64,000 nt of DNA. Source: Verrucomicrobiota bacterium (lineage in GTDB: Bacteria; Verrucomicrobiota; Verrucomicrobiia; CAIQCK01). Both the position numbers and the translations under genes were made by a program. A model generated the notes under the pieces. The model saw only the letters and a list, made by a program, of their open reading frames with translations, made no database searches and was not told where the DNA came from. Below, in pieces: positions 31,021 through 58,426 of this stretch. Location of the stretch: the NCBI GenBank assembly GCA_016222825.1, contig JACRQF010000011.1, positions 61,301 through 125,300 of the forward strand, written 5' to 3'. How positions within the stretch are numbered: the stretch's first letter is position 1; each line of letters opens with the position of its first letter.

Positions 31021-31147
31021 TAGGGGGTTTCCCTACGATGTATGTCTCAATCCTTTGTGGGGTTTCTACGCGGAGTGGCGGGTCAGTTTCCTAGGCCGGT
31101 TTGAGGTTCTGGCCGCATTGCGGAGATGCGCGGAGGGGCGCTACGCT
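31021..31147 (+). promoter_or_regulatory. TAGG-N7-CCTA box (31021-31035; degenerate copy 31079-31093) plus sigma70-like promoter
   Basis: TAGGGGGTTTCCCTA and CGGGTCAGTTTCCTA, then TTGCGG-N18-TACGCT. Confidence 0.65.
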
Positions 31148-31172
31148 GGAGAAGATGTCCAGAGTAATAAAC

Positions 31173-31439
31173 ATGAACGAGCAGCTTCCAGAGCCCATGC
31201 TGTTGGGGAATGCGGAATCGGCGGACGGCGGATTGCCGCCGACGATGAAATTGTCGTTGCCCAACCTGGACCGATGCGGCGGCAGGCGCATCGCGGACAG
31301 TGAGTTGGTGGTGTGTCTGGCGATCCCGGACGGGGGCTGTCATTTCGCGCTGCTCTACGGCGACACGCATTATTGCTGTCACTCGCGCCGTCTGGAAATC
31401 GCCGCCCACACCCGCGATCTCAAGCGAGCCAAGGGATAA
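31173..31439 (+). CDS. Small Cys4-His protein, paralog 1
   Basis: LPNLDRC-x12-C-x7-CHF....G....CCHSRRLEIAAH, sharing exact motif spacing with four paralogs. Confidence 0.8.
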   Translation: MNEQLPEPMLLGNAESADGGLPPTMKLSLPNLDRCGGRRIADSELVVCLAIPDGGCHFALLYGDTHYCCHSRRLEIAAHTRDLKRAKG

Positions 31440-31469
31440 GGCCGGCGTCCCGTTATGAGGACGCCGGCC
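31439..31469 (+). terminator. GC-rich hairpin after paralog 1
   Basis: GGCCGGCGTCC...GGACGCCGGCC inverted repeat with no U-tract. Confidence 0.45.
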
Positions 31470-31492
31470 GGGGGGGGGCGGGTCGTTCATCG

Positions 31493-31559
31493 TAGGCTCC
31501 CGCCTTAGGTTGTTTCGAGATTCGTTCCGATTGTTGAACCACAGCGGATGAACGATGGT
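31493..31559 (+). promoter_or_regulatory. TAGG-N7-CTTA box plus promoter of paralog 2
   Basis: TAGGCTCCCGCCTTA, then TTGTTG-N17-GATGGT. Confidence 0.55.
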
Positions 31560-31634
31560 CTGCGGCCGAAGATCGCGGCATGGAGACAGGCGAAGGGCAG
31601 AGGCGCGGAGCCGTTCTTAATGCGGAACGTCATC

Positions 31635-31922
31635 ATGAACAAGTCGGTTACACTCAAGAAAAGATTGGCGATGTTGGACGCGGAACACGCCGCCCACAGC
31701 ATCCGGGCGGCCCAGCGGGCGCCGCTGCCGGAGGCCACCGCTTGCGCCGGCGCGCAAGTCGTGGACAGTTACATCGTTGTCTGCCACTCGTATCTGGAGC
31801 TGCCGTGTGAATTCGTGCTGCCGTTCGGCGAGGTGTGCTATTGCGGCCACCCGCGCCGGTTGGAAATCGCCGCCCGCACCCGCGAGCTCGAGCGCGCGCG
31901 GCGACAAAGCGCCATCGGCTAG
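31635..31922 (+). CDS. Small Cys4-His protein, paralog 2
   Basis: LPEATAC-x12-C-x7-CEF....G....CGHPRRLEIAART. Confidence 0.8.
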   Translation: MNKSVTLKKRLAMLDAEHAAHSIRAAQRAPLPEATACAGAQVVDSYIVVCHSYLELPCEFVLPFGEVCYCGHPRRLEIAARTRELERARRQSAIG

Positions 31923-31997
31923 GATGGGGGCCGCTGGCCGTTGCGGGACCAGCCACGCGGAACGGAGACGCGCACGCGAACAGGAACCGGCCGGACC

Positions 31998-32035
31998 TAG
32001 GCCCCGTTCCCAAACCGCCATAGTGGTAAAACCTA
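31998..32035 (+). promoter_or_regulatory. Two near-consensus TAGG-N7-CCTA boxes 23 bp apart, upstream of paralog 3
   Basis: TAGGCCCCGTTCCCA (31998) and TAGTGGTAAAACCTA (32021). A downstream promoter was not clearly resolved. Confidence 0.5.
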
Positions 32036-32154
32036 AGCTTGATTCCGATACTGCATGGAGACTCTCCCCTAATGACGCCAAGCGCGATGCGAGCGATATT
32101 CTCACATGCTTGAGGCACCCGTTATGAAGAAGAGCTGACAGAAACGGAGAGATT

Positions 32155-32466
32155 ATGAAGAATCTACAGAGGCGGATGGAGGATGATGTGCCGCCCCACA
32201 GGGTCGGTCGGTGGCCCGTGATGAAGCAACCGTTGCCGCAGGAGGCCAAGTGCGTCGGCATGCGGGTCTTGGACAGCGAGTTGGTCGTATGCCTGGCGAA
32301 CCCGGCCGGCGGCTGCGGGTTCTCGATGACGTTCGGCAGCAAGCGGTTTTGTTGCCATCGGCAGCATTTGAAATTCGCCGCGCGCGCCAAGGCATCGCCC
32401 CTGGCAGCGGCGGGGCGCGGACATTGCTGCGGGATGCTTTGTAACGCGGAGTATCGGCACGACTGA
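32155..32466 (+). CDS. Small Cys4-His protein, paralog 3
   Basis: LPQEAKC-x12-C-x7-CGF....G....CCHRQHLKFAAR. GGAGA RBS. Confidence 0.8.
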   Translation: MKNLQRRMEDDVPPHRVGRWPVMKQPLPQEAKCVGMRVLDSELVVCLANPAGGCGFSMTFGSKRFCCHRQHLKFAARAKASPLAAAGRGHCCGMLCNAEYRHD

Positions 32467-32529
32467 GCCGCTCCTTCTTCAACGCGCATAAAGCGCCGCC
32501 TCGCGGCATCGCAATAAGGGGGAAGTCCT

Positions 32530-32597
32530 CAGGCGTTTTCCCTAGGCCATTTTCAGGTTCTGCCCGTATTGCTGATACGCCGGCCGCGTGGGACAGT
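32530..32597 (+). promoter_or_regulatory. CAGG-N7-CCTA box plus promoter of paralog 4
   Basis: CAGGCGTTTTCCCTA, then TTGCTG-N17-GACAGT. Confidence 0.6.
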
Positions 32598-32620
32598 GCG
32601 GGCGGTCGTTCTTGGCTACC

Positions 32621-32953
32621 ATGGATCCGGAAGGCACACAAGGCAGGATGTTGATCGAGGTCGAGAGGGAGTTGACTGTCGCCACCGCTCACAGAATCGT
32701 GAGGGAGTGTTTGCCGGACGAAACGCGGTGCGCGGGCCGGCAGATTGCGCGGAGTGACATGGTAGTCTGCATGGCGGGGGCTGACCACCCATGTGAATTC
32801 TCCGTGGAGTTGGGCTGCCGCCTTCTGTGCTTTCATCCTCGCCGGCTGGAGATCGCCGCGCGCCAGCGCGCGCTGGCCCGCGAGCAAACGCAGGCGCTTC
32901 GACAAAAACCTACCACCCGCATCGCCTCCAAACGCACGCAGCGAAATCACTAG
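32621..32953 (+). CDS. Small Cys4-His protein, paralog 4
   Basis: LPDETRC-x12-C-x7-CEF....G....CFHPRRLEIAAR. Start uncertain (32621 or 32648). Confidence 0.8.
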   Translation: MDPEGTQGRMLIEVERELTVATAHRIVRECLPDETRCAGRQIARSDMVVCMAGADHPCEFSVELGCRLLCFHPRRLEIAARQRALAREQTQALRQKPTTRIASKRTQRNH

Positions 32954-33018
32954 GCTCTCTCCCTAGGCCCGCTTCGGCTTCTGCCCGGTTTGTCAATGCA
33001 CGGGCCGCGAACCATAGT
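32951..33018 (+). promoter_or_regulatory. TAGG-N7-CCTA box plus bfr promoter
   Basis: TAGGCTCTCTCCCTA, then TTGTCA-N17-CATAGT. Confidence 0.7.
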
Positions 33019-33179
33019 GCTCCGCAGATCGAAAGCACGGATTTTGGACGAGAAGGTGGTCTCACTTGCTTTCGTTCCGTCGCGTGACTAGAGTGCGCAC
33101 GCTGGCGCGGTTTCAAGGATTCAGAACAACGGTCAAGACCACCGCAGAAACGCTGTCAACCCATGAAGGAGATTCTCGA

Positions 33180-33650
33180 ATGAAAGGTAATGCAAAGGTC
33201 ATCGCCACACTCAACATGCTGCTGGCCGAGGAGCTGACGGCGATCAACGAGTATATGGTGCATTCGGAGATGTGCGCGAACTGGGGCTTCGAGCGCCTGC
33301 ACAAGGTCATTGAGAAACGCGCCATTGACGAGATGAAGCACGCGGAGAAACTAATCGCCAGGATTCTCTTCCTCGAAGGCACGCCCGTCGTCAGCAAGCT
33401 CAATCCGATGCATATCGGCGCGGATGTCGTGGCGCAACTGAAGAACGACCACGGCGCGGAGGCGACGGCTGTGAAGTTGTATAACGAGGCCATCCCGCAG
33501 GCGGCCGAACAAGGCGACAACGGCACCCGCGAGATGCTCGAAGACATCCTTGAGGACGAGGAGACGCACATTGACTGGATCGAATCACAACTCGATCAGA
33601 TCAAGCAGATGGGTGCGCAGAACTACCTGGCCGAACAAACGCGGGCGTAA
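33180..33650 (+). CDS. bfr: Bacterioferritin
   Basis: MKGNAKVI..LN.LLAEELTAINEY, DEMKHAEKLIARILFLEG and EETHIDWIE ferroxidase/heme-Met motifs. Confidence 0.96.
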   Translation: MKGNAKVIATLNMLLAEELTAINEYMVHSEMCANWGFERLHKVIEKRAIDEMKHAEKLIARILFLEGTPVVSKLNPMHIGADVVAQLKNDHGAEATAVKLYNEAIPQAAEQGDNGTREMLEDILEDEETHIDWIESQLDQIKQMGAQNYLAEQTRA

Positions 33651-33746
33651 GCAAACGGAGAAGGCACGGCAGGGGAACGAGCGCGGAGGATTCGCGTCTG
33701 CCGACGCTGGACTTTCGCGACGCACCCGCTAACATTCGCGCACGCT

Positions 33747-35924
33747 ATGGCACTGAACGTCGCTTTCTACTGGCACATGCACCAGCCGGATTACGTGGAT
33801 CCGGACCGGAAGGTGGCGATGCTGCCGTGGGTTCGCCTGCACGCCGCCAAGGGCTACTACGACATGGTGCGCTTGGTGAAGGAATTTCCCACCGTGCCGA
33901 TCACGTTCAACATGACGCCGGTGCTGGTGAAGCAGATGCTGGAGCTGCAACGCGGCGAGGTGCAGGACGCATGGCTGGAATTGTCGCGGACGCCGGCGGA
34001 CCGGTTGACGGCGGCGCAGCAGCAGGAGGTGTTGCGGCACTTCTTCAGCCTTTCGCATCAGAACATGGTGCGGCCGTATCCGCGCTACGACGAGCTGCTG
34101 CGAATGCGCGGGTCAGAGACGCGGCCGGCGGCGTTGGAGGAGGCGGCGCGGCATTTTCTCGCGGGCGATTGGCGGGACTTGCAGGTGTGGTTCAACCTCG
34201 CGTGGTGCGGCTACTTCGCAGTGCGCGACATGCCGGAACTGGCGGCGCTGCGGAAGAAGGGGCGGAATTTCACCGAAGCTGACAAGAAGGTCGTGCTGGA
34301 CGCGCATCTGGAGTTGGTGCGGCGCTCGCTGGCGGAGTATCGCGAGTTGAACATCGCCGGGCGGATCGAGGTGACGGCGAGTCCTTTTTATCATCCGATC
34401 ATGCCGCTGGTGTATAACACCGACTTCACGCGGCGCTGTATGCCGGGCGTGCCGCTGCCAACGACGTTTTCGTATGCGGAGGACGTGCGCGAACATTTGG
34501 AGCGCGCGGCGCGGTTTCACGAGGAGGTTTTTGGGCGGCGGCCAACGGGATTGTGGCCGTCGGAAGGCTCGGTTTGCCCGGAACTGGTGCCGCTGGTGCG
34601 CGCGGCGGGCTTCGAGTGGATGGCGACGGACGAGGAGATTCTGTTCCGGTCGCTCCAGATGATGCGCGGCAACCACACGAATGTGCAGCACGAGGAGTTG
34701 TTCCGGGCATACAGGCTAACCCACGGCGGCGCGAGCGTTGGGATGTGTTTTCGCGACCGCGGGCTGTCGGATTTCATCGGGTTCACCGCTGCGCGGCAAA
34801 AACCCGAGGACGCGGCGAAGTTCCTGATGGACGCGCTCGGCACGATCGCGACACAGGCGCGGGAGCCGGACGCCTTGGCGCTGGTTTTGCTCGACGGTGA
34901 GAACGCCTGGGAGTCGTTCGCGGACGGCGGCGAGACGTTCTTGCGGAAGGTCTATGGCGCGCTGGCCAGCGACGGGCGGTTCAAACCAGTGACACTGACG
35001 AATTACTTCCGCCAGCACGCACCGAAGCGTGATCTGACCACGATCCATACCGGCTCGTGGATTTACGCGAATTTCGACATCTGGATCGGCGACCAGGAGG
35101 AAAATCGCGCGTGGGAACTGCTGCGGGAGGCGCGTTACTTGTTTTCGCAGGTTCGGGACTCGCTGTCCGAGGATGCGCGGAGGTCGGCGATGCAATCGTT
35201 GCTGGCGGCGGAAGGCAGCGATTGGTTCTGGTGGTATGGTCCGGAGTTCCAGATTGAGGACAAGCCGCTGTTTGACGACCTGTTCCGGCGCCATGTGCGC
35301 TGCGCCTACCGCGCAATGGGCCGCCAATGGCCGGCAGCCGTGGATCGCTCGTTGCTGACGGTCGGGCCGGTTTATGCCTACCAGCAACCGCGCGAACTAA
35401 TCACGCCGGTCATAGATGGCCTGCGAACATCGTATTACGAATGGCTTGGCGCGGGCGTCTATCGTGGCGGCGTGGGCCAGCACGCGATGGCGAAGTCGGC
35501 GGACTTGGTAAAGGAGATTCTGTTCGGCTTCGACAGGGAGAATTTCTATTTGGGGCTACAGTGGACAGGCAGCCCGCCGCTTCCGGGGGGCGACGCGGTG
35601 CGGCTGAGGTTCTCAGCGCCGCGAAACGCAGAGCTATGGCTTGGAGGGCTTCGGGAGAAGGCCAAGGGACCAGTCAAGCGCGAGCTGAGAGGGGATTGGG
35701 CATGTCAACAGACGGCCAGCGGCAGAACCGTGGTTGCGGCGCACGACCGAATGTTTGAGGTGGCAATTCCATTGGAGCTTTTTGGACAGGCGGCCGGACA
35801 GAAGTTGAGCTTTGTGGTGAGCGTAGAGAGCGGAGGTCAGATGCAGGAGCAACATCCCGGCGAAGGCGAGGTTTGCCTTGCAGTGCCGAGCAAGGCGGAT
35901 GGGAACGAGGACTGGCTAGTTTAG
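33747..35924 (+). CDS. Glycoside hydrolase family 57 (amylopullulanase-like)
   Basis: WHMHQP, PFYHPIMPL, GLWPSEG, LDGENAWE and AEGSDWFWWYG. Confidence 0.93.
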   Translation: MALNVAFYWHMHQPDYVDPDRKVAMLPWVRLHAAKGYYDMVRLVKEFPTVPITFNMTPVLVKQMLELQRGEVQDAWLELSRTPADRLTAAQQQEVLRHFFSLSHQNMVRPYPRYDELLRMRGSETRPAALEEAARHFLAGDWRDLQVWFNLAWCGYFAVRDMPELAALRKKGRNFTEADKKVVLDAHLELVRRSLAEYRELNIAGRIEVTASPFYHPIMPLVYNTDFTRRCMPGVPLPTTFSYAEDVREHLERAARFHEEVFGRRPTGLWPSEGSVCPELVPLVRAAGFEWMATDEEILFRSLQMMRGNHTNVQHEELFRAYRLTHGGASVGMCFRDRGLSDFIGFTAARQKPEDAAKFLMDALGTIATQAREPDALALVLLDGENAWESFADGGETFLRKVYGALASDGRFKPVTLTNYFRQHAPKRDLTTIHTGSWIYANFDIWIGDQEENRAWELLREARYLFSQVRDSLSEDARRSAMQSLLAAEGSDWFWWYGPEFQIEDKPLFDDLFRRHVRCAYRAMGRQWPAAVDRSLLTVGPVYAYQQPRELITPVIDGLRTSYYEWLGAGVYRGGVGQHAMAKSADLVKEILFGFDRENFYLGLQWTGSPPLPGGDAVRLRFSAPRNAELWLGGLREKAKGPVKRELRGDWACQQTASGRTVVAAHDRMFEVAIPLELFGQAAGQKLSFVVSVESGGQMQEQHPGEGEVCLAVPSKADGNEDWLV

Positions 35925-39112: not shown

Positions 39113-39180
39113 TAGGGTTTCTTCTTAGCCGGTTTTCGAGAACTTCCCGCATGGCGCGGTCCGGCTTCCCCGCGTAGGTT
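39113..39180 (+). promoter_or_regulatory. TAGG-N7-CTTA box plus promoter
   Basis: TAGGGTTTCTTCTTA, then TGGCGC-N17-TAGGTT. Confidence 0.55.
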
Positions 39181-39202: not shown

Positions 39203-39397
39203 ATGAACACGAACAAATCACGAACGCGCGTCCTTTTCGTGAACGATCATCCGGCTTCGGAGGACGCGGCGGAATCTTCGGTGGTCGAGCCGGGCGCTTT
39301 GGAGCGCGTGTTTCTGTCGGCGGCGCTGATCTTCGCGATCTTCTTCCTGGTGGCGGTCGCGGTGTTTGGGGCGCCGGCGTCCTGGGGCGCGCGGTAG
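39203..39397 (+). CDS. Small single-TM membrane protein
   Basis: 64 aa with a hydrophobic stretch VFLSAALIFAIFFLVAVAVF. Has its own box-containing promoter. Confidence 0.6.
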   Translation: MNTNKSRTRVLFVNDHPASEDAAESSVVEPGALERVFLSAALIFAIFFLVAVAVFGAPASWGAR

Positions 39398-43606: not shown

Positions 43607-43882
43607 TCACCCGACGGCGCGGCGTTCAATAGAGGGCAATCGGGGAGCAGGTCTTTTGGTTTGCTTGGTGCGCGCGACGATCTGTTCGCGCTGCGGGTGG
43701 CGGCAGAGCCGGTGAACGCCGAAGGCAACTTGGTAGCGGCAGCGCGCAGGGCCGGCGACGAGGCACCACGCCGCGTCGCCGCAGCTCCGCCCCTTGGCCC
43801 GGCAGATGTCCGGGTCTGGCAGGGATTGTATCGGGTGGAAGGATTGTAGTTGAACGCCGGACTGCCATGTCTTCGTGTTCAT
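43607..43882 (-). CDS. Small Cys4-His protein, paralog 5 (dispersed copy)
   Basis: LPDPDIC-x12-C-x7-CRY....G....CRHPQREQIVART, the same spacing as the 31-33 kb paralogs. Confidence 0.8.
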   Translation of the reverse strand: MNTKTWQSGVQLQSFHPIQSLPDPDICRAKGRSCGDAAWCLVAGPARCRYQVAFGVHRLCRHPQREQIVARTKQTKRPAPRLPSIERRAVG

Positions 43883-43915: not shown

Positions 43916-43982
43916 ACTGTAGGCCGGCGATACGCGGCTGTCTTGAGGGATTATTCTAATTTTCGCCTAGGTGTTCCGCCTA
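43916..43982 (-). promoter_or_regulatory. TAGG-N7-CCTA box plus promoter of paralog 5
   Basis: TAGGTGTTCCGCCTA (43968-43982), then minus-strand AAGACA-N17-TACAGT. Confidence 0.7.
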
Positions 43983-44309: not shown

Positions 44310-45263
44310 TCAGAATCTCCAGGCGATGGAGGCGCGCACGCGGAGGTCGGGCACGAGCGTGTCGCCGGTGCTGTGGATGTGGGCGGGCACGTCCACGGCG
44401 CCCAGGGCGCTGAGGCGGTTGTTGAAGGTGTAGGTGAGTTGCGGACCGAGGAAGACGATGGTTTCGGCGGTGTGGCCCATTTCCATGACGGCGCCGGGAG
44501 GCATCACCATGTCGCCCATCTGGTCCTGCCCCTTGGTTTCGCCGGAGCAGATGAGCTGCAAGGCCAGCGTGTGGTTCTCGTTGAGGAGCAGATAGTAGCC
44601 GGGGCCGGCCTGCCAGGAGAGGTCGTTGGCGAAGCGGTAGCCGAAGGCGCCCTCGGTGCGGATGCCGTATTGCGCGCTGGCGGTGCCCATGAAGCGATGC
44701 CAGCGTCCATAGACGCCCGTGCCGATGATGCCGTCAAAGGAGCCGGAGCCGAGCGCCAGGTCGTGGCCGCTGATGCCGGTGGCGAAGTCCGGCTCCTCGG
44801 GATTGAGATGGGCGGGGTCGCCGGTGGGGAACTTCACGCCGCCGATGAGGTTCCATCGGAAGGTGGAGTCCTCGTCGGCTTTCTCGAAGAGGAGATAGTT
44901 GCCCAGCAAGCAGATGTCGCCGAGGCCGCTCTCGTGCGCGGAGCCAGCGGCGTCGGAGCCGAAGTCCTTGTAGAGGTAGGGCACGTTGAGTTGGACGCCG
45001 ACGCGGCGGTTGAAGCGGTAGGCGGCGTAGAACTGGGTGTTGTAGCTGTGGAGATACTCGCCGTCGTTGGGCACGGTGCGGTTCTCGGCCTGGAGGGTGT
45101 TGAAGTAGGTGTATTGCTCGGCGACGCCCGCGTAGAAGCCGCGGTCGCCCGCCCCCTGCGCCTCGGAGGCGATGTAGATGGCGCAGAGATCGCAGGTCCG
45201 CGCGGGACCGGCAAGAAGCAAACTGACAAGGCACGCCACGACGCCGACGGTTCTTGTTTTCAT
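44310..45263 (-). CDS. Putative outer-membrane beta-barrel (MetA-pathway/transporter-like) with N-terminal CxxC
   Basis: Signal peptide then CDLC, GLGDI, GVKFPTG, LGSGSFD and C-terminal WRF. Confidence 0.75.
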   Translation of the reverse strand: MKTRTVGVVACLVSLLLAGPARTCDLCAIYIASEAQGAGDRGFYAGVAEQYTYFNTLQAENRTVPNDGEYLHSYNTQFYAAYRFNRRVGVQLNVPYLYKDFGSDAAGSAHESGLGDICLLGNYLLFEKADEDSTFRWNLIGGVKFPTGDPAHLNPEEPDFATGISGHDLALGSGSFDGIIGTGVYGRWHRFMGTASAQYGIRTEGAFGYRFANDLSWQAGPGYYLLLNENHTLALQLICSGETKGQDQMGDMVMPPGAVMEMGHTAETIVFLGPQLTYTFNNRLSALGAVDVPAHIHSTGDTLVPDLRVRASIAWRF

Positions 45264-45290: not shown

Positions 45291-45358
45291 ATAATCCCCC
45301 GCGGCGCGGGCGGATTCAATAGAGGCAAAGTCTGAACGCGGCTTAGGAAAGACGCCTA
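45291..45358 (-). promoter_or_regulatory. TAGG-N7-CCTA box plus promoter of the OM barrel gene
   Basis: TAGGAAAGACGCCTA (45344-45358), then minus-strand TTGAAT-N17-GATTAT. Confidence 0.7.
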
Positions 45359-50315: not shown

Positions 50316-50353
50316 TAGGTGTTTTCCCTAACCATCGCTGCGGTTTGTTCCTA
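50316..50353 (+). promoter_or_regulatory. TAGG-N7-CCTA box (plus a degenerate second box 23 bp downstream) upstream of kaiC
   Basis: TAGGTGTTTTCCCTA (50316-50330) and TGCGGTTTGTTCCTA (50339-50353). Confidence 0.6.
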
Positions 50354-50431
50354 GGGCTTTTGCCTTGAATTCAAGGGGAAGTGGGAATAAAAGAGTGGCC
50401 GTTGAAACCGAACCAACGGAGATTGATTTTC

Positions 50432-52153
50432 ATGAAAGCAAAGGCTGCGGGGTTCACTGTGGGAAAAACCAATTCGACACTGCCCAAATCCCCCACGGGC
50501 ATCCAGGGTCTGGACGAGATCACCGGCGGCGGCCTGCCCAAAGGCCGGCCCACGCTCATCGCGGGCGCGGCCGGTTGCGGTAAGACGCTGCTGGGGATGG
50601 AGTTCCTCGTGCGCGGCGCCACGGAGTTTGGCGAGCCGGGCGTGTTCATGGCGTTCGAGGAGACGGGCAAGGAGCTGGTCGCCAACGTCCGCTCGCTCGG
50701 CTTCGACCTCAACAAGCTCGTGGCGCAAAAGAAGATCGCGCTCGACCACGTGCGCGTCGAGCGCAGCGAGATCGAGGAGACCGGCGAGTATGATCTGGAG
50801 GGGCTGTTCATCCGCCTCGAACACGCCGTCAAGAGCGTCGGCGCCAAGCGCGTCGTGCTGGACACGGTGGAGACGCTCTTCGCCGGGCTGCCCAACCAGC
50901 TCATCATCCGCGCCGAGCTGCGGCGGCTCTTCGCGTGGCTCAAGGAGCGCGGCCTCACGGCCATCATCACCGGCGAGCGTGGCGGTGCCGAGGGCACGCT
51001 GACGCGGCACGGGCTGGAGGAATACGTCGCCGACTGCGTCATCGTGCTCGACCACCGCGTGGACGAACAGATGTCCACGCGCCGGCTGCGGGTGGTGAAG
51101 TATCGCGGTTCGATGCACGGCACCAACGAGTATCCGTTCCTCATCGGCGAGCACGGCATCTCGGTGATGCCCGTGACCTCGATGAAGCTGGACCACGAGG
51201 TGACCTCGCAGCGCATTTCGTCGGGCATCGCGCGGCTGGACGAGATGCTCGGCGGCAAGGGATTTTATCGCGGCAGCAGCGTGCTGGTCTCCGGCTCGCC
51301 GGGCTGCGGCAAGACCAGCGTGGCGGCGCATTTCGCCGACGCGACCTGCCGGCGCGGCGAGCGCTGCCTGATGTTCGCCTACGAGGAGTCCCCCAGCCAG
51401 GTGTTGCGCAACATGCGCTCCATCGGCATTGACCTCGAACAATGGGTGCGCAAGGGCCTGTTGCAAATCCACGCCACGCGCCCCACGCTCTACGGGCTGG
51501 AGATGCATTTGGTGACCATGCACGACCTGGTGGTGAAGTTCCGTCCCACGGTCGTCATCGTGGACCCGATCAGCAACCTCACCGTCCGCAATGACGAGAC
51601 GGAGCTGAAGCCGACGTTGATGCGGCTGATAGATTCCCTGAAGACGCGGCACGTCACGGCGCTGTTCACCAGCCTGACCACCGGCGGCTCCAGCCTGGAG
51701 GAATCGCAGGTCGGCGTCTCCTCGCTCATGGACACCTGGCTGTTGTTGCGCAACATGGAGAACAATGGCGAGAAGACCCGCACGTTCTACATCCTCAAGA
51801 GCCGCGGCATGGCTCACTCCAACCAGGTGCGCGAGTTCGTCATGACCGGCAAGGGCGTGGACCTGCTGGATGTCTATGTCGGCGCCAACGCCGTGCTCAC
51901 CGGCACCGCGCGTGTGGCGCAGGAAGGCCGCGAGCGCGCCGAGGCCGCCCTGCGCCAGCGCGAGCACACGCGCAAGCTGCGCCAGCTCTCCCGCAAACGC
52001 AAGGCCATCGAGGCGCAGATCGCTGCGCTCCAGGCTGACGTGGAGGCCGAGGAGGATGAGATCAAGTCCTCGGTGTCCGAGGATTCGTTGCAGCAGAAGG
52101 CCGTCGCCGCCGATCGCCGCCAGATGACCCAACTGCGCGGCGGCGCCCGCTAA
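50432..52153 (+). CDS. kaiC: Double-domain KaiC ATPase/autokinase
   Basis: Two Walker A motifs (GAAGCGKT, GSPGCGKT), FEE/YEE, KYRGS.H and KSRG..HS. Phospho-site equivalent VSSLMD. C-terminal coiled coil. Confidence 0.95.
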   Translation: MKAKAAGFTVGKTNSTLPKSPTGIQGLDEITGGGLPKGRPTLIAGAAGCGKTLLGMEFLVRGATEFGEPGVFMAFEETGKELVANVRSLGFDLNKLVAQKKIALDHVRVERSEIEETGEYDLEGLFIRLEHAVKSVGAKRVVLDTVETLFAGLPNQLIIRAELRRLFAWLKERGLTAIITGERGGAEGTLTRHGLEEYVADCVIVLDHRVDEQMSTRRLRVVKYRGSMHGTNEYPFLIGEHGISVMPVTSMKLDHEVTSQRISSGIARLDEMLGGKGFYRGSSVLVSGSPGCGKTSVAAHFADATCRRGERCLMFAYEESPSQVLRNMRSIGIDLEQWVRKGLLQIHATRPTLYGLEMHLVTMHDLVVKFRPTVVIVDPISNLTVRNDETELKPTLMRLIDSLKTRHVTALFTSLTTGGSSLEESQVGVSSLMDTWLLLRNMENNGEKTRTFYILKSRGMAHSNQVREFVMTGKGVDLLDVYVGANAVLTGTARVAQEGRERAEAALRQREHTRKLRQLSRKRKAIEAQIAALQADVEAEEDEIKSSVSEDSLQQKAVAADRRQMTQLRGGAR

Positions 52154-52174
52154 GTTTGACCGGAGAAGAACGCG

Positions 52175-52465
52175 ATGAAGAAGACCGGAGAAAAAACCTG
52201 GCAGTTGCGCCTCTACGTGGCCGGGCAGACCGCCAAGTCCATCACGGCCCTGGCCAACCTCAAGAAGATCTGCGAGACGCATCTGGCGGGCCAATACGAG
52301 ATCGAGGTGATTGACTTGGTGCAGAACCCCAAGCTGGCCGCGGGCGACCAGATTCTGGCCATCCCGACGCTTGTGCGCCGGCTGCCCTCGCCAATCAAGA
52401 AGATCATCGGCGACCTCAGCAACGAAACGCGCGTGCTGGTCGGCCTCGACCTGCGCCAGGGCTAA
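52175..52465 (+). CDS. kaiB: KaiB-family protein
   Basis: [24 protein letters not shown] and IIGDLS. Confidence 0.95.
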
Positions 52466-52490
52466 GATGAAAGAGGTTCTTGCAAAACCC

Positions 52491-52519
52491 TGTAGCGGCG
52501 GTCATAGACCGCCGCTACA
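52491..52519. repeat. Perfect REP palindrome between the kaiB genes
   Basis: TGTAGCGGCGGTC-ATA-GACCGCCGCTACA. Confidence 0.85.
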
Positions 52520-52553
52520 GTAGAGGCAAGAGGATCGAGAGAAAGAAGTTCTC

Positions 52554-52898
52554 ATGGCAAAGGTATCAACCAAGACCGGGTTGGAAGCGCTGGAAGAAGC
52601 GGCGGCCAAGCAGGGGACGGAGCGCTACGTGCTCCGCCTCTACATCACGGGCATGACGCCGCGCTCCACGCTGGCGGTCGAGAACATCCGGAAAATTTGC
52701 GAGGAGCATCTCCAGGGGCGCTACGACCTGGAGGTGGTGGACATCTACAAGCAGCCGACGCTGGCCGAGGGCGAGCAGATCATCGCCGCGCCGACGCTCA
52801 TCAGGAAACTGCCGCTGCCGCTGCGTCGTTTCATCGGCGACATGAGCAACACCGACCGCATCCTGCTGGGATTGGATTTGCGAACGAAGGCCAAGTAA
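52554..52898 (+). CDS. kaiB: Second KaiB-family protein
   Basis: YVLRLYITGMTPRS, IIAAPTL and FIGDMS. Confidence 0.93.
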   Translation: MAKVSTKTGLEALEEAAAKQGTERYVLRLYITGMTPRSTLAVENIRKICEEHLQGRYDLEVVDIYKQPTLAEGEQIIAAPTLIRKLPLPLRRFIGDMSNTDRILLGLDLRTKAK

Positions 52899-53603
52899 AT
52901 GGAAACGATGACCGAAGAAGATCTGCTTAAAGAGAACGCCGAACTGCGCGCGCGGCTGGAGGAAGCCGAGGAGACGCTTCGCGCCATCCGCGCCGGCGAG
53001 GTGGACGCGGTGATGGTGGGCGCACAGGTCTTCACCCTCAAGAGCGCCGAGACGCCCTACCGGATCCTCGTGGAGGCCATGAACGAGGCCGCCATCACGC
53101 TCACGCCCGACGGCACCGTCCTCTACTGCAATGGCCGGTTGGCCGAACTGTTCCGCGTGCCGCATGAGGCCGTCGTCGGCGCCACGCTGCGGCAGTTCGT
53201 GGCGCCCGCCGACCAGCCGAAGTTTGACGCGCTGTTCGCCGAGAGCCTGAGATGCTCCAGCAAGGGTGAAATCGGCCTCGGACGCAAGGGCGGCCCGCCC
53301 GTTCCCGTGCAGCTTTCCCTCAGCCTCATGAAGCTGGACGACGGCACTCGCGGCCTCTGCGCGGTCATCACCGACCTCAGCGAGCGCAAGCGCGTCGAAA
53401 TTGCCCTCAAGCAACTCACCGAGGACTTGGAAGCCCGCGTGGCCAGCCGCACATTGGATCTGCAGGCCAAGAACGAGGAGTTGAAGAAATCCAACAGAAT
53501 GATGGTCGGCCGCGAGTTGCGCATGATCGAGTTGAAGAAAGAAATGAACGCCCTCTGCGCGAAGTTTGGCCAGCCACCGAAGTATCCGAACGCCGTCGAG
53601 TAG
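52899..53603 (+). CDS. PAS-domain protein without a kinase domain
   Basis: N-terminal coiled coil LEEAEETLRAIRAGEVDA, PAS (YRILVEAMNE...VITDLSERKR) and C-terminal MVGRELRMIELKKE coiled coil. Confidence 0.88.
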   Translation: METMTEEDLLKENAELRARLEEAEETLRAIRAGEVDAVMVGAQVFTLKSAETPYRILVEAMNEAAITLTPDGTVLYCNGRLAELFRVPHEAVVGATLRQFVAPADQPKFDALFAESLRCSSKGEIGLGRKGGPPVPVQLSLSLMKLDDGTRGLCAVITDLSERKRVEIALKQLTEDLEARVASRTLDLQAKNEELKKSNRMMVGRELRMIELKKEMNALCAKFGQPPKYPNAVE

Positions 53604-53621
53604 CAGCGATCCCTTCACTCC

Positions 53622-55554: not shown

Positions 55555-55881
55555 ATGGTTAATCTCTCTGACATTGTAACCTTTGTTTACGGCGTCGTTG
55601 GATTCGCCATCGGCTGGTTGTGGGGGCGGCACCGCAGCAACGCGGCCAGTTTCATGGCGTCGGTGATTGTCGGGGCCGCGGGCTTCGCGGTGGGCAAAGG
55701 CTTGGAATGGGTCCAGATCCTGACGGAGTCGTGGATTGACAAGCTCGGCCAGAGCTACAAGTTCCTCGGCACGTCGGCCAACGTGCTGGCCAACGTCATT
55801 TGGTGCGCCGTCATCATCGCGATCCCGGCAATCGCGATCGCCGCTTTCAGAAAGACAGACCGTCGCCCCGCCGCCGAGTAG
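55555..55881 (+). CDS. Small membrane protein (about 3 TM)
   Basis: Three hydrophobic segments. AAGGA RBS. Confidence 0.7.
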   Translation: MVNLSDIVTFVYGVVGFAIGWLWGRHRSNAASFMASVIVGAAGFAVGKGLEWVQILTESWIDKLGQSYKFLGTSANVLANVIWCAVIIAIPAIAIAAFRKTDRRPAAE

Positions 55882-55932
55882 GAGCCGTCCCGGCGTCCTG
55901 CCACCATCCGCGCTGTCCCCCTCCCCTCGTCG

Positions 55933-56000
55933 TAAGAAAATCTCCTAGGCCACAATCAGTTTTGCTCCGAGTGTTCCAACGGGGGCGGATGTGCCAGAGT
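55933..56000 (+). promoter_or_regulatory. TAAG-N7-CCTA box plus promoter of the NarL-type regulator
   Basis: TAAGAAAATCTCCTA, with -10-like CAGAGT 48 nt downstream. Confidence 0.6.
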
Positions 56001-56049
56001 TGCAGCGCTTGCAGCCGCTGCGTTTCTGCAAGGCGTGAGAGACATCTTT

Positions 56050-56727
56050 ATGAAGACTGCAACGACGGCATCCGCCGGTATCAAGCGTGCGCGCGTGCTG
56101 GTGGTCGAGGACCATCCAATGCTGCGCAAGGGATTGGTCCAGTGCATCAACGACGAACCCGACCTCGTCGTTTGTGGCGAGGCCGGCACCATCGCGCAGG
56201 CCATGAAGCTGGCGCCCTCGTTGAAGCCCGAAGCCGCCGTCGTGGACATCGGTCTTCCCGACGGTCACGGCCTGGAACTGGTCAAGAGCCTCAAGTCCCT
56301 GCTGCATCAGGTAAAGATCCTGGTGCTGTCCATGCACGAGGAATCGGTCTATGCGGCGCGGGCATTGCAGGCCGGCGCGCACGGCTACATCATGAAGAAA
56401 GAAACGCCGGAGCAGGTGATCGCCGCCCTTCGCCAGGTGATCAAAGGCGAGATCTCCCTCAGCGGGGCGGCGACGGGCAAGTTGCTGACGCGAGCGGTCA
56501 GTCGCAGCCCGGAGGCGCCCCTGACGCCGGAGGAACGGCTCAGCGACCGCGAGTTGGAGGTCTTCGAGTTGATCGGCCAGGGCAAGAGCGCCAAGGCCAT
56601 CGCCGAGCAATTGCGCCTGAGTCCCAAGACCATCTCCGCTTACCGCGAGAACATGAAACTCAAGCTCGGCCTGCGCGACAGCAGTTCGCTGGCCCACCAA
56701 GCCTTTAGCTGGGTGCAGGAGCACTGA
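56050..56727 (+). CDS. NarL/FixJ-family DNA-binding response regulator
   Basis: VLVVEDHP, VVDIGL, VLSMH, YIMK and LuxR HTH LSDRELEVFELIGQG...IAEQL.LSPKT. Confidence 0.95.
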   Translation: MKTATTASAGIKRARVLVVEDHPMLRKGLVQCINDEPDLVVCGEAGTIAQAMKLAPSLKPEAAVVDIGLPDGHGLELVKSLKSLLHQVKILVLSMHEESVYAARALQAGAHGYIMKKETPEQVIAALRQVIKGEISLSGAATGKLLTRAVSRSPEAPLTPEERLSDRELEVFELIGQGKSAKAIAEQLRLSPKTISAYRENMKLKLGLRDSSSLAHQAFSWVQEH

Positions 56728-56798
56728 TCCCAAGGCAAGACGGCCGCCCGCCGCGCCGTCCAAGGCCGCAGATCGGGTTTCAACGCCCTCCCCCGCGC

Positions 56799-56866
56799 TA
56801 GGGATACTCCCTACCTCACAAACGGGTTTGCCCCGATTGTCACGCCGCGGCCGGGCGTGCCAACAT
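56799..56866 (+). promoter_or_regulatory. TAGG-N7-CCTA box plus promoter
   Basis: TAGGGATACTCCCTA, then TTGTCA and -10-like CAACAT. Confidence 0.65.
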
Positions 56867-56940
56867 CCGCGTGACGTAAAACGAGGTGACGCAAACCCGA
56901 CATGAAAACTGCGCGGCCTGACCGGCAAAGGAGAACGACG

Positions 56941-57180
56941 ATGAAGACGCAAACATTGGGACAGACCGATGTTCAAACGACGCCCGCCTACCCCTATCTG
57001 GTCTGGGACAATGACGGCCGCACTCACGGACTCGACGTCACCTACCGGCCGGAGGCGTGGGCGATGTTCTTCGCTGATGATGTCCGCGGTGGCGCGCTCG
57101 CGATCCTCACCGCGCGCGAAACATGGCCGCAATCACCTTGCGGGCCAAACGCTGATTGCCAGAAGCCCGAAGCGTCGTGA
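56941..57180 (+). CDS. Small hypothetical protein
   Basis: AAGGAG RBS before ATG 56941, and a box-containing promoter. Confidence 0.55.
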   Translation: MKTQTLGQTDVQTTPAYPYLVWDNDGRTHGLDVTYRPEAWAMFFADDVRGGALAILTARETWPQSPCGPNADCQKPEAS

Positions 57181-57322
57181 AGGCGCGGCGGCAAGCCGAA
57201 CTCCGGCTTCTTCTCCCCCACAACGCAACCGCCCCCATCGCGCGCCGCGCTCGCAAGGGTGGGCTCCCCAAGTTTACGACGAGCCTTTCTACCAACTGCG
57301 CCGGCCCCCCTCTTCCCGATCG

Positions 57323-58201
57323 CTATTGGAGCGTTGTCTTTGACAGCGCACTGGACCACGCCGTGGGTCCATCGTCATTCAACGCCTGCACCCGGTAGAG
57401 GTATTTGGTCCCCGGAGTCAAACCGGAGTCCTGAACCGCGGTCGCGCTGCCCGGAGTTTGCACAATCTGCGTCCAAGTCGCGCCGCCGTCGGAACTCCGT
57501 TGCACGCGGAATCCCTGGCTGGCGCCATTGAAGCTCCAAGCGATGCTGATGGATGTGCGCTGCGTCGTTGCAGCCCTCAGGTTGGTCGGCACGGTGGCAG
57601 TAGCCCGAACCGCTGGCGGCGCACTGGAACCGACCGAACCCGCTGCCCGGCCAAGGGAAGCCACCTGCATGGGGCGTCCCGCAGCGGGGAGCCGCGCCCG
57701 CAAAGCCGCGGCGTCCCCGGCATTCTGAAACGCTGCCGGCCCGGCAACCCCCGCCCGAACCGCCGCCGGCTTGGGGGAGGCCGCCCGCACGGGCCGTCCA
57801 GCGGCGGCTGGCGATTCCCGCAAGGCGGTCGCATCTCCATTGTTCTGGACCGCCGCCGGCGCGGCAGGACCGGCCGGACTCGCCGCCGGCATGAAGAAGG
57901 TGGCTTTAACGGGTTGTCCAGCGGCGGCCATCCGCGCGTGCCGGGCGGCGGCGGCCTCCAGCGCCGCCGCTCCCTCGGCGTCAATCTGCGCCTGACCCTG
58001 ATCTGCCCCCCAAAGGAGGACGGCCGCGATGGCGCCCAAGAAGACAACGCCTCTCTGCGTGTCCGCGTTTTTCTTTTGGCCGACACCATTCTCTGCTGCC
58101 GCGGACTGCGGGTCGGCGCCTGAACATTCTCTCATCGCAGCAACCACCCGGATTCTCGGCTTGATTGACGTATTGTTGGTTTGTGACTTTTGTTCGCTCA
58201 T
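57323..58201 (-). CDS. Membrane-anchored or secreted protein with Pro/Ala-rich linker and C-terminal fibronectin type III domain
   Basis: PTNLRA...SISIAW...GFRVQRS.DGG..W...DSGLTPGTKYLYRVQALN. Hydrophobic segment near the N-terminus. Confidence 0.8.
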   Translation of the reverse strand: MSEQKSQTNNTSIKPRIRVVAAMRECSGADPQSAAAENGVGQKKNADTQRGVVFLGAIAAVLLWGADQGQAQIDAEGAAALEAAAARHARMAAAGQPVKATFFMPAASPAGPAAPAAVQNNGDATALRESPAAAGRPVRAASPKPAAVRAGVAGPAAFQNAGDAAALRARLPAAGRPMQVASLGRAAGSVGSSAPPAVRATATVPTNLRAATTQRTSISIAWSFNGASQGFRVQRSSDGGATWTQIVQTPGSATAVQDSGLTPGTKYLYRVQALNDDGPTAWSSALSKTTLQ

Positions 58202-58209
58202 GACGCCCT

Positions 58210-58426
58210 ACTCTCCGCGCGCATCCAGCGCCCCGCAATGGGGCAATCTCCCCAACAACGTCTAAGGAACATTCCCTAGGGAGGATTCGAGCGCGGGCCA
58301 AGGAGATATGCCTGCACTCGTCTCCCGCCGCCGCCACCAGAGAAATCTCCGATGCGGTTAGGGACCGTTCCTAGGATCGTTTCGGCATTAGCCCGTCTGT
58401 TGCGCCGCGGCCTTTGCGCGTAATCT
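58210..58426. promoter_or_regulatory. Divergent promoter pair, each with a box
   Basis: TAAGGAACATTCCCTA (58263-58278) with minus-strand TTGCGG-N17-GAGAGT. TAGGGACCGTTCCTA (58359-58373) with TAATCT 48 nt downstream. Confidence 0.65.

Follow-up and report, generated by a model that had tools for sequence, protein, structure and literature searches.

A TAGG-N7-CCTA palindrome forms the distal half of a two-box promoter module with a predicted NarL/FixJ-type regulator in an uncultured Verrucomicrobiota bacterium

The palindrome TAGG-N7-CCTA recurs between genes in a 64-kb stretch of the genome of an uncultured groundwater bacterium (the whole stretch is referred to as the window), raising the question of whether it is a genuine regulatory motif and, if so, which protein reads it. 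Seven perfect copies occur in the window (31021, 32951, 43968, 45344, 50316, 56799, and 58359), each exactly where an earlier sequence-only reading had placed it. The guess of that reading, less than one perfect site by chance in 64 kb, was borne out by dinucleotide shuffles, from which 0.05 perfect boxes are expected; none of 100 shuffles reached seven. Seven of its near-perfect sites have one mismatch (31493, 31998, 32021, 32530, 39113, 55933, and 58264, the last corrected from 58263), but box 31079 has two, yet shows a strong extended motif (27.9 bits). With three further one-mismatch boxes absent from that list (3068, 44050, and 50352), the window holds 17 boxes with at most one mismatch, compared with 4.2 expected.

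In the whole genome (6.61 Mb), the N7 form occurs 38 times, compared with zero to seven times for each of the spacings N0 to N6 and N8 to N15. All 38 perfect boxes lie in the 13.5% of the genome without gene calls, their intergenic status depending on the rough in-house gene caller used for the split. Four of the 38 are T-arms inside tRNA genes (ARAGORN). One-mismatch boxes number 103 in intergenic and 90 in coding DNA (coding fraction, 0.864). RcsB and NarL belong to the FixJ/NarL family and bind as dimers to short inverted repeats, with NarL sites arranged as 7-2-7. The 14-bp RcsAB box, quoted in the sequence-only reading, resembles the box described here in its outer bases (TaAG...CctA) and in its type of regulator (here a candidate), but its spacing, TAAG-N6-CCTA, differs from that of this genome, in which TAGG-N6-CCTA occurs twice and the N7 form 38 times.

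A longer promoter module, oriented and made of two boxes, has the palindrome as its distal half. With the start of box 1 taken as offset 0, the module comprises (i) box 1 (offsets 0 to 14), in which two inverted copies of the heptad tTyCCTA are arranged 7-1-7 (15 bp); (ii) an 8-nt linker, often GGCC-rich; (iii) box 2 (offsets 23 to 37, i.e., 23 nt start to start), a degenerate copy of the form yCRGgwTy...CCga; (iv) a weak -35 element (nTGnnn/TTGnnn; offsets 38 to 44) abutting box 2; and (v) a -10 element (TAnnnT; offsets 61 to 68, first base at 61 to 63). In 31 gaplessly aligned sites, T39 is present in 30, A63 in 21, and T67 in 18, with only T39 and G40 conserved in the -35 region. The columns between the conserved blocks carry approximately 0 bits, which argues for selection on specific positions rather than for copied sequence. 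In G006, another genome of the genus, box 2 appears as a true second copy at C9 25441/25464 and C46 8424/8447, where a pair of perfect boxes is spaced by exactly 23 nt and followed in each case by a -35-like hexamer; boxes 31998 and 32021 of the window are likewise 23 nt apart.

A 45-nt position weight matrix (PWM) was built from the 31 sites. Its training sites and its first search both came from this genome; the controls were the PWM in reverse, the -10 region, which had been left out of training, and genomes other than this one. Above 18 bits it yielded 42 matches in the genome, compared with 1 for the reversed PWM, and 47 of the 49 matches above 15 bits were intergenic. Offsets of 45 and above were excluded from the PWM, making the -10 test independent of it: TANNNT starts at offsets 61 to 63 in 22 of the 42 composite sites (control offsets: mean, 0.375; maximum, 1), and nANNNT does so in 38. 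These results support TAGG-N7-CCTA as a real regulatory motif, intergenic and oriented, that keeps a constant distance to a sigma-70-like promoter, the distance having been proposed from the window. Transcription is expected to start near offset 74, so that the boxes would be centered at about -67 (box 1) and -44 (box 2); the former matches the center suggested previously and follows from the -10 element starting at offsets 61 to 63. The simple class I activator site envisaged with it does not fit, because the second, degenerate box near -44 abuts the -35 element; the architecture is instead of the tandem-dimer (BvgA/DevR-like) type.

Five Cys4-His open reading frames (ORFs) had been named as targets, and all five were confirmed; this expanded family of small proteins has no Pfam match. 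The first (31173-31439) follows a composite promoter at 31079-31147(+), with box 1 at 31079-31093, box 2 at 31102-31116, a -35 element at 31117-31122, and the -10 element TACGCT at 31142-31147; the perfect box at 31021-31035, which lacks its own promoter and starts 58 nt ahead of box 31079, may act as a far-upstream site for it. The second (31620-31922) follows the composite promoter 31493-31559(+) (box 1, 31493-31507; box 2, 31516-31530; 32.5 bits; -35, 31531-31536; -10-like GATGGT, 31554-31559). The third (32155-32466) has a multi-box promoter at 31998-32102(+), with boxes at 31998, 32021, 32034 (17.7 bits), and 32057 ahead of ATGACG (-35, 32072-32077) and TATTCT (-10, 32097-32102). The fourth (32588/32621, ending at 32953) probably starts at ATG 32621 and is preceded by the composite promoter 32530-32597(+) (box 1, 32530-32544; box 2, 32553-32567; 42.0 bits; -35, 32568-32573; -10 GACAGT, 32592-32597). 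Behind it, a composite promoter at 32951-33018(+) (box 1, 32951-32965; box 2, 32974-32988; 38.4 bits) precedes the bacterioferritin gene (33180-33650); its TTGTCA (-35, 32990-32995) and CATAGT (-10, 33013-33018), 17 nt apart, were found by a sigma-70 scan at the predicted place, and of the promoters in 30900-33200 only this one passes the sigma-70 consensus scan. The fifth Cys4-His ORF (43607-43882, minus strand) lies behind a promoter at 43916-43982(-) that scores low (3.4) in the rigid-PWM extension (box 1, 43968-43982; box 2, 43945-43959; -35, 43939-43944; -10 TACAGT, 43916-43921).

A 64-aa ORF (39203-39397) follows the composite promoter 39113-39180(+) (box 1, 39113-39127; box 2, 39136-39150; 37.1 bits; -35, 39151-39156; -10 TAGGTT, 39175-39180), and a 317-aa secreted protein (44310-45263, minus strand) follows 45291-45358(-) (box 1, 45344-45358; box 2, 45321-45335; 27.9 bits; -35 ATTGAA, 45315-45320; -10 GATTAT, 45291-45296). 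The NarL-type regulator gene (56050-56727) is preceded by the composite promoter 55933-56000(+) (box 1, 55933-55947; box 2, 55956-55970; 42.6 bits; -35, 55971-55976; -10 CAGAGT, 55995-56000) and followed, 72 nt past its stop codon, by that of a small ORF (56941-57180) at 56799-56866(+) (box 1, 56799-56813; box 2, 56822-56836; 39.2 bits; -35 TTGTCA, 56837-56842; -10-like CAACAT, 56861-56866). The composite promoter 58359-58426(+) (box 1, 58359-58373; box 2, 58382-58396; 35.6 bits; -35, 58397-58402; -10 TAATCT, 58421-58426) precedes genes for a 162-aa protein (58460-58948) and a hemerythrin (59073-59456). At the non-canonical promoter 50316-50393(+), boxes 50316-50330 and 50352-50366 are 36 nt apart, followed by TTGAAT (-35, 50365-50370) and TAAAAG (-10, 50388-50393), ahead of kaiC (50432-52153), two kaiB genes (52175-52465 and 52554-52898), and a PAS gene (52899-53603), all identified by Pfam. 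Box 58264-58278(-), upstream of an fn3 protein gene (57323-58201, minus strand), has a proximal element shifted by approximately +2 nt and was aligned by eye without a score. Pfam searches upheld the earlier assignments of ferritin/bfr, REC plus GerE, KaiC-KaiB-KaiB-PAS, fn3, and hemerythrin, but gave no match for the presumed outer membrane barrel (44310-45263) or the receiver-like protein (58460-58948), the latter with leads only to a flavodoxin-like fold.

Of the 34 perfect boxes outside tRNA genes, only 17 score above 18 bits under the rigid-spacing model, the remainder being aligned by eye; in the window, boxes 43968, 50316, 58264, and 31021 depart from the rigid spacing. Variant promoters carry additional boxes at +13, +23, or +46, and three-site arrays occur at C1 755017 and C1 757329. 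The predicted regulon spans the genome, with about 42 rigid-spacing composite promoters, 9 of them in the window. Putative targets genome-wide include hemerythrins, bacterioferritin, a multihaem cytochrome, a multicopper oxidase, a TonB receptor, the kaiC-kaiB-kaiB-PAS cluster, a number of PAS/HAMP sensor kinases, and small proteins without known function that belong to expanded families. This content leans to iron, oxygen, and signaling and suggests a redox, oxygen, or iron stress program, in line with the iron/oxygen/stress program proposed earlier, the physiological signal being read from gene content. The palindrome marks predicted switch-controlled promoters before about forty genes.

The predicted regulon adds a new instance to an already known type of control, its promoters being built much like the BvgA promoters of Bordetella. 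BvgA sites are imperfect palindromes with centers 22 bp apart, located in PfhaB at -88.5, -66.5, and -44.5 with the weakest adjoining the -35 element (PMC9708447), and TTTCCTA, an inverted heptamer, serves as their half-site (PMC4314077). The present module shares with them a NarL-family response regulator (here a candidate), an imperfect palindrome of an inverted heptad (tTyCCTA here, a likeness at the level of the heptad sequence), sites about two helical turns apart with the best upstream and the weakest beside a poor -35 element, centers at about -67 and -44, and three-site arrays. It differs in its 15-bp (7-1-7) palindrome and 23-bp period (14 and 22 bp for BvgA), in having variants whose additional box is displaced by 13 nt, in its phylum (Verrucomicrobiota), and in targets unrelated to virulence; the window regulator is not a BvgA ortholog, as no NCBIfam equivalog was reached. 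A second parallel is DevR/DosR of Mycobacterium tuberculosis, a NarL-subfamily regulator that governs about 48 genes of a stress regulon (PMC4973870) and whose promoters have tandem boxes as a hallmark, a conserved box nucleating cooperative binding to poorly conserved neighbors (PMC3177182). The 18-bp Dev box, with G5 and C7 critical (PMC3177182), differs from TAGG-N7-CCTA, as do the target genes.

From the observed motif, geometry, intergenic bias, conservation, and association with regulator genes, we infer how the module may be bound and activated, by which regulator, and in response to which signal. TAGG-N7-CCTA is more likely than not the distal, high-affinity operator of a promoter module that depends on an activator of the NarL/FixJ type. 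Dimers of a phosphorylated response regulator of this family would first occupy box 1, which would help further dimers onto the weak box 2 beside the -35 element in a cooperative manner, and would attract RNA polymerase of the sigma-70 type; BvgA~P acts in this way at PfhaB, and DevR at tandem boxes. The binder is most plausibly of the NarL/LuxR type, and the best candidates are the predicted autoregulated orphan at 56050-56727(+), which has REC (1.3e-24) and GerE helix-turn-helix (2.6e-16) domains and no adjacent kinase, and its 74%-identical paralog (C27:67830-68552), which lies behind its own kinase gene (1,715 aa; REC-PocR-PAS-GAF-HisKA_3). The nearest solved relatives of the former are NarL (4e-31) and DevR (9.3e-31). 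The gene of the window regulator has the motif on both sides. As the specific binder, the window regulator, the C27 paralog, and a genus-wide conserved paralog at C1:756622-757299 are equally eligible. Regulators that have a box close by could not be told from the others by their recognition helices; a scan of 10 kb around the HK-RR operon of the C27 paralog gave no composite match; and the G006 ortholog of the window regulator has none close upstream, the sole match on its contig lying approximately 10.7 kb upstream.

Among the eight genomes of the genus, only G000, the genome studied here (38 perfect and 19 stringent composite copies), and G006 (27 and 6) are rich in the motif, and only these two encode a regulator >70% identical to that of the window. 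Loci around the 27 perfect boxes of G006 contain 16 composite matches above 12 bits, and the two genomes share Cys4-His proteins, small MKKT peptides, DUF2934, and a PAS kinase as regulon members. The same architecture might be read by a different NarL-type paralog, RR-B of the genus-wide conserved HK-RR pair C1:755336-757299, with the window regulator a mere target or later-acting amplifier. Its homologs have a box 40 to 50 nt past the stop codon in G000 (C1 757329), G001 (C36 145176), G004 (L017), and G007 (L011), recognition helices are alike across the paralogs, and G001, whose best match to the window regulator is 48% identical, keeps the module (34.7 bits) upstream of its best Cys4-His ortholog. 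We nonetheless regard this as unlikely, given that perfect N7 boxes are greatly expanded only in the two genomes with a window-type regulator and that the RR-B-adjacent boxes are of the GGGnTTTCCCC type, with TCAGGA-N3-TCCTGA in their place where G003 and G000 have the orthologous promoter; this difference points to a related but separate specificity. In G004 and G005, the Cys4-His ortholog promoter carries the TAGG-N6-CCTA form.

GerE-type proteins can also act as repressors, and weak -35 elements are typical of activator-dependent promoters. Occupancy of box 2 at or over the -35 element could block RNA polymerase and leave the regulon to be de-repressed; box 2 does abut the -35 element, and box 50352-50366 of kaiC overlaps its TTGAAT by 2 nt. 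This is improbable, since the -35 elements are consistently weak, the strongest site is the upstream one at -67, a position from which a repressor would achieve little, and the geometry equals that of the activators BvgA and DevR. We assign a similarly low probability to a transcription factor outside the response regulators, with the nearby NarL-type genes being simply regulon members: many targets are signaling proteins, among which regulator genes could be ordinary, but the half-site and tandem geometry match a published NarL-family member, and the module recurs next to NarL-type genes in distant PVC genomes. The spread of a mobile or duplicated promoter-bearing repeat along with paralogous genes, without a shared regulator, would suit the many paralogous targets (Cys4-His, hemerythrin, 162-aa family, and MKKT peptides) and the four perfect boxes that sit within a four-copy repeat; it is highly improbable, considering that specific columns alone are conserved, that the module precedes >15 unrelated gene families, and that it is kept at orthologous genes in G006 and G001. 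Around homologous NarL-type genes of other genomes (3-kb flanks), composite PWM matches above 14 bits occur at 9 of 80 and 7 of 27 loci (19 matches in total versus 1 for the reversed PWM), and perfect N7 boxes number 12, versus 0, 1, 5, and 1 for N5, N6, N8, and N9. In L095 and L126 the regulator gene is preceded by the module, an arrangement like that at 55933, and in L011, L017, and L161 the module follows 40 to 70 nt past the stop codon of the regulator gene, as at 56799; NarL-type genes with an adjoining module occur in other Verrucomicrobiota and in Planctomycetota.

The TAGG-N7-CCTA palindrome marks a real and well-delimited regulon. The sequence-only reading had reported seven perfect sites in the window (31021, 32951, 43968, 45344, 50316, 56799, and 58359), and all seven are there, with 0.05 expected and none of 100 dinucleotide-preserving shuffles reaching seven. 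With at most one mismatch, the window contains 17 sites, against 4.2 expected. The reading's list of near-perfect sites held up for 31493, 31998, 32021, 32530, 39113, and 55933, each with one mismatch; the site placed at 58263 in fact begins at 58264, 31079 has two mismatches, and further one-mismatch sites lie at 3068, 44050, and 50352. In the window's own genome (G000; 6.61 Mb in 27 contigs, 63.5% G+C), where the window spans C19:61301-125300, TAGG-N7-CCTA occurs 38 times, and each of the spacings from 0 to 6 or 8 to 15 nt occurs 0 to 7 times (N6, twice). The predicted enrichment in intergenic over coding DNA was borne out, as all 38 perfect sites lie outside the genes predicted by our own simple codon-usage gene caller, which defines intergenic status here and leaves 13.5% of the genome without a call. 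Four of the 38 are T-arms of tRNA genes. One-mismatch sites are found 103 times in intergenic and 90 times in coding DNA.

When intergenic sites are oriented by their flanks, a longer and asymmetric module emerges, with the palindrome (box 1; offsets 0 to 14, counted from its first base) at its upstream end. In a gapless alignment of 31 sites, the promoter-proximal half of box 1 reads tTyCCTA, with T in 13/31, T in 22/31, and C in 17/31 or T in 13/31 at its first positions, followed by C (31/31), C (27/31), T (31/31), and A (30/31). GG is frequent at offsets 15 and 16, a w-y-C-R-G-g-w-T-y block occupies offsets 22 to 30, and C34 and C35 are conserved. Conservation of the -35 element is limited to T39 (30/31) and G40 (20/31), and that of the -10 element appears in A63 (21/31) and T67 (18/31). 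Box 1 is high in information content, the second block (box 2) is low in it and only partly conserved, and the columns between the conserved blocks carry about 0 bits. A position weight matrix (PWM) of 45 nt, covering offsets 0 to 44 and thus ending short of the -10 region, found 42 sites above 18 bits in G000, compared with 1 for the reversed matrix; above 15 bits, 47 of 49 sites are intergenic. Box 1 is perfect in 17 of the 42 composite sites, has one mismatch in 20, and has more in 5; nine of the sites are in the window and 10 are on contig C10.

A fixed distance from the box to the -10 element had been proposed, and the composite sites agree with it: TANNNT begins at offsets 61 to 63 in 22/42 sites (in control windows of three offsets, the mean is 0.375 and the highest count 1), and the looser nANNNT begins there in 38/42. 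The proposed position of the box near -67 also stands, provided that transcription starts about 7 nt past the -10 element; on the same assumption, the second block would be centered near -44. A sigma-70 scan recovered TTGTCA-17-CATAGT at 32990-33018, behind the box at 32951; most other promoters fail the sigma-70 consensus because their -35 element is poor.

Box 2 repeats box 1 in degenerate form, 23 nt further on. In G006, another genome of the genus, pairs of perfect boxes with a spacing of exactly 23 nt occur at two loci, each pair directly ahead of a -35-like hexamer, and at many other sites the box 2 position is taken by a box with one or two mismatches. Window boxes 31998 and 32021 are likewise 23 nt apart. 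Variants, aligned by eye and unscored, include an extra box at an offset of 13 nt with a common terminal TA (C2 11258/11271 in G000; 32021/32034 in the window), three-site arrays at 0, 23, and 46 nt (C1 755017 and C1 757329), and the kaiC promoter of the window, in which boxes 50316 and 50352 (36 nt apart) precede TTGAAT (50365-50370) and TAAAAG (50388-50393).

This architecture closely parallels that of promoters activated by BvgA. [quoted passage not shown] An inverted heptamer, TTTCCTA, is accepted as the half-site of high affinity (PMC4314077); tTyCCTA compares directly with it, and in both systems the best site is upstream and the weakest is beside a poor -35 element. The half-site, presumed affinity gradient, and -67/-44 placement are common to both, and the phasing is similar, whereas the palindrome described here is 15 bp long rather than 14 bp (N7 in 38 cases, N6 in 2) and the centers are 23 bp apart in the 31-site alignment and the perfect G006 pairs, and elsewhere also 13, 36, and 46 bp, rather than 22 bp (PMC9708447). 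DevR promoters have at least two tandem boxes, of which a conserved one nucleates cooperative binding to poorly conserved neighbors; the Dev box is an 18-bp motif (18 to 20 bp, each half-site having G5 and C7), in contrast to the 15-bp TAGG-N7-CCTA (PMC3177182). These likenesses, with differences of 1 bp in palindrome length and period, argue that the module would work like a BvgA-type promoter while lying outside the BvgA and DevR regulons.

Other readings of the repeated element fit less well. The GG and GC of the proximal element recall a sigma-54 promoter, but by eye their distance is about 3 nt too short. We rejected a mobile repeat because the columns between the motifs carry about 0 bits. 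An RNA motif finds no support, because positions 30000-60000 of the window match no Rfam family. The promoter grammar departs only slightly from one already known, and the likely mechanism is that tandem NarL-type dimers would activate a weak sigma-70 promoter. The regulon itself is apparently undescribed. A literature search returned no paper with the strings TAGG-N7-CCTA, TAGGN7CCTA, TAGGNNNNNNNCCTA, or TAGGG-N5-CCCTA, and nothing relevant by title or abstract appeared among the matches listed for a response regulator or hemerythrin binding motif in Verrucomicrobia.

Targets proposed for the window do lie behind the module: five Cys4-His open reading frames (ORFs), a bacterioferritin, kaiC-kaiB-kaiB-PAS (50432-53603), an fn3 protein, a hemerythrin preceded by a 162-aa protein, and the NarL-type regulator itself (56050-56727; site 55933, 42.6 bits). 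A 64-aa ORF and a small ORF directly downstream of the regulator have the same arrangement. The supposed outer membrane barrel gene is also behind the module and encodes a 317-aa secreted protein, although this has no Pfam match. The description of the 162-aa protein as receiver-like found no support: it has no Pfam match and aligns poorly (23% identity) with a true REC protein. The kaiC-kaiB-kaiB-PAS operon is found in a groundwater Verrucomicrobiota metagenome-assembled genome (MAG), under a module of two-component type.

The Cys4-His proteins (window 31173-32953 and 43607-43882, the latter on the minus strand) share the pattern LP-x4-C-x12-C-x7-C-x11-C-x-HP-RRLEIAAR, with four invariant cysteines and a nearly invariant His-Pro. 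Each of the eight genus genomes has profile matches (17 in G000, 23 in G006, and 6 to 10 in the others), and the family matches no Pfam or NCBIfam entry. An AlphaFold2 model (pLDDT 79.7 overall, about 90 over residues 40 to 100) confidently predicts a core of two beta-hairpins and a C-terminal helix. Foldseek gave no PDB match to this model at an E value of ≤0.001, and in a wide VIA-align search the best Z score was 3.4, over helices only; this lack of a significant PDB match does not imply a novel fold. The best orthologue in G001 has the full module upstream (34.7 bits), and in G004 and G005 the box takes the form TAGG-N6-CCTA, while the proximal element is unchanged. The 162-aa protein belongs to a second family (144 to 162 aa; window 58460-58948, G000 C10:22280-22768 and C4:215586-216020), whose members are 46 to 62% identical, are always behind the module, and have no Pfam match. 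Its nearest clusters are unnamed Verrucomicrobiota proteins, and structure-atlas leads are flavodoxin-like, with TM scores of 0.5 to 0.55, below the bar of the method.

Beyond the window there are 33 composite sites, for each of which the best-scoring downstream ORF was taken as the target; some short ORFs are doubtful. A Pfam family was assigned to 20/33: four hemerythrins; three PAS-containing sensor proteins, one with HisKA_3 and HATPase_c; a multi-HAMP protein, a multiheme cytochrome, a TonB-dependent receptor, and a multicopper oxidase; an M28 peptidase, a metallophosphoesterase, an RNase H, an fn3 protein, and a 3D-domain protein; and an aminotransferase, a DUF2934 protein, an RbsD/FucU protein, and an FKBP. 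The 13 targets without a family include recurrent peptides of 49 to 57 aa behind the strongest promoters. These promoters (41 to 45 bits, box TAAGCAnnnTCCCTA) precede "MKKT..GELVALAYEV.." ORFs at C9:213028-213177 and C25:166085-166258; the upstream regions at C20:22566, C10:476154, and C10:477589 probably belong here too, and homologs in G006 are likewise behind the module. A second regulon island, C10:12001-32000, has six sites (16294, 20981, 21758, 22805, 26383, and 30020) and encodes two multiheme cytochromes, two FGE-sulfatase-like proteins, two large proteins without assignment, two HisKA kinases, and six single-domain receivers.

The window regulator matches Pfam Response_reg (1.3e-24) and GerE (2.6e-16) and has the acidic pocket and phosphoacceptor aspartate of a receiver: E25, D26, D71, S99, and K121/K122 are invariant in three close paralogues, and we presume their roles from their positions. 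The nearest solved chains are NarL (4e-31) and DevR (9.3e-31). Its best NCBIfam match, NarL, scores 135 bits against a cutoff of 250, and it falls in no named equivalog (NarL, UvrY/GacA, RcsB, FixJ, and others), as the 25 listed of its 81 matches all score below their cutoffs. Pfam searches of the window found no kinase adjacent to the regulator, which is flanked by the module (55933 upstream and 56799, 72 nt downstream). A 74%-identical paralogue (C27:67830-68552) is directly behind a 1,715-aa kinase with REC, PocR, PAS, GAF, HisKA_3, and HATPase_c domains, and the G006 orthologue (71 to 72% identical) is directly behind an 1,823-aa ORF. The helix-turn-helix regions of these three regulators are nearly identical. 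Apart from G006, matches among 40 relatives do not exceed about 49% identity, and a search of related loci, from which the window's own genome was possibly left out, found no close orthologue (best, 51%). The 10 kb around the C27 kinase-regulator operon has no composite hit; the G006 regulator has none close upstream, the single hit on its contig being about 10.7 kb upstream.

Assignment of the module to the window regulator is weakened because the Cys4-His orthologue in G001 keeps the full module, and because another NarL-type gene, C1:756622-757299, which lies behind its own kinase and is conserved across the genus, has a box 40 to 50 nt past its stop codon in G000, G001, G004, and G007. We name three candidate regulators: the window gene, C27:67830-68552, and C1:756622-757299. 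The recognition helices of 107 homologous regulators contain no signature separating those with a nearby box from those without. Our gene caller predicts a single 9,148-aa ORF at C1:726895-754341 (minus strand), adjoining the kinase-regulator pair C1:755336-757299.

Perfect boxes number 38 in G000, 27 in G006, and 4 to 10 in each of the six remaining genus genomes, where they are mostly the four tRNA sites and one conserved site. A stringent composite pattern occurs 19 times in G000, 6 times in G006, and 0 to 4 times elsewhere (39 relatives and 300 further genomes of the phylum, the maximum of 4 in the latter being about the control level); having been derived from G000, it is biased toward that genome and misses true sites such as that at locus L176 of G001. 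A loose pattern, YCRGNWTYNNNCCNNNTG, was uninformative, with 50 to 83 matches per genus genome, mostly in coding DNA. A search for regulators of 42 to 51% identity gave 80 surrounding loci, most of them in MAGs of Planctomycetota and Verrucomicrobiota; 9 of these score above 14 bits with the composite PWM, as do 7 of 27 loci from relatives, and the 107 loci give 19 hits, versus 1 with the reversed matrix. Perfect N7 boxes occur 12 times in the 80 loci plus 29 from relatives (579,265 bases), versus 0 for N5, 1 for N6, 5 for N8, and 1 for N9. The module is upstream of the regulator gene in two of these loci (L095 and L126) and directly past its stop codon in three (L011, L017, and L161). The module and its tie to this subfamily of regulators are therefore ancient and broadly distributed among PVC bacteria; what sets G000 and G006 apart is copy number only.

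Verrucomicrobiota and Planctomycetota are mostly uncultured, and to our knowledge almost nothing is known of their transcriptional control. The four sequencing runs listed for this organism are DNA runs from one groundwater-metagenome study, with no RNA run among them. The analysis yields no new principle of regulation; it does yield a promoter model testable at base resolution (operator, spacing, -35, and -10), a regulon list, a shortlist of three regulators, and evidence of the module across the PVC superphylum. A single switch would tie together KaiC-KaiB in a nonphotosynthetic bacterium, hemerythrins, and an expanded unannotated Cys4-His family, offering a functional handle on each. A broader reading, which we consider speculative and rather doubtful as a whole, is that a narrow groundwater lineage (G000 and G006) multiplied an ancestral PVC-wide BvgA-like module from a handful to about 40 to 60 promoters, with the NarL-type regulator duplicated into kinase-linked and self-activating orphan copies. 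The circuit would join iron storage, five hemerythrins, a KaiC-KaiB module for timing or stress, and the 17- to 23-copy Cys4-His metal-binding miniproteins, which have no recognizable solved fold, in one switch-like, dormancy-type program, an independently arisen functional analogue of the DosR regulon, and the N5, N6, or N7 spacing between AGG and CCT would be a code insulating paralogous regulators. The spacing variants (N5, N6, and N7) and box arrays (+13, +23, and +46) form a natural series that could serve the study of cross talk avoidance among paralogous NarL-type regulators.

Modules of this kind can also begin with a different but related palindrome, TCAGGA-N3-TCCTGA (AGG-N5-CCT), as at C10:51019(-), C11:45480(+), and C10:199787(-) in G000 and at position 2244 of locus L014; TCAGG-N5-CCTGA occurs 13 times in G000. 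The promoter of a 189-aa "MILW..." gene has TCAGGA-N3-TCCTGA in G000 and G003 and TAAGGTTTTCCCCTA in G004 and G007, an apparent turnover of box type between orthologous promoters. Four perfect boxes of G000, TAGGTAAATTCCCTA, belong to a repeat present in four copies, with similarity extending into the flanks (C1:475598, C3:156567, C6:5132, and C10:6287); on the other strand, a CCTGAT...ATCAGGG palindrome comes next, and the -35 and -10 elements are about 13 nt further away than usual. Finally, six of the eight genus genomes conserve TAGGCTCTTACCCTA together with its flanks (G000 C19:37759, outside the window; G001 C50:98205; G003 C25:80531; G004 C2:15503; G005 C436:3880; and G006 C72:14306); this site lacks the usual module extension and may represent a conserved RNA or a different operator.
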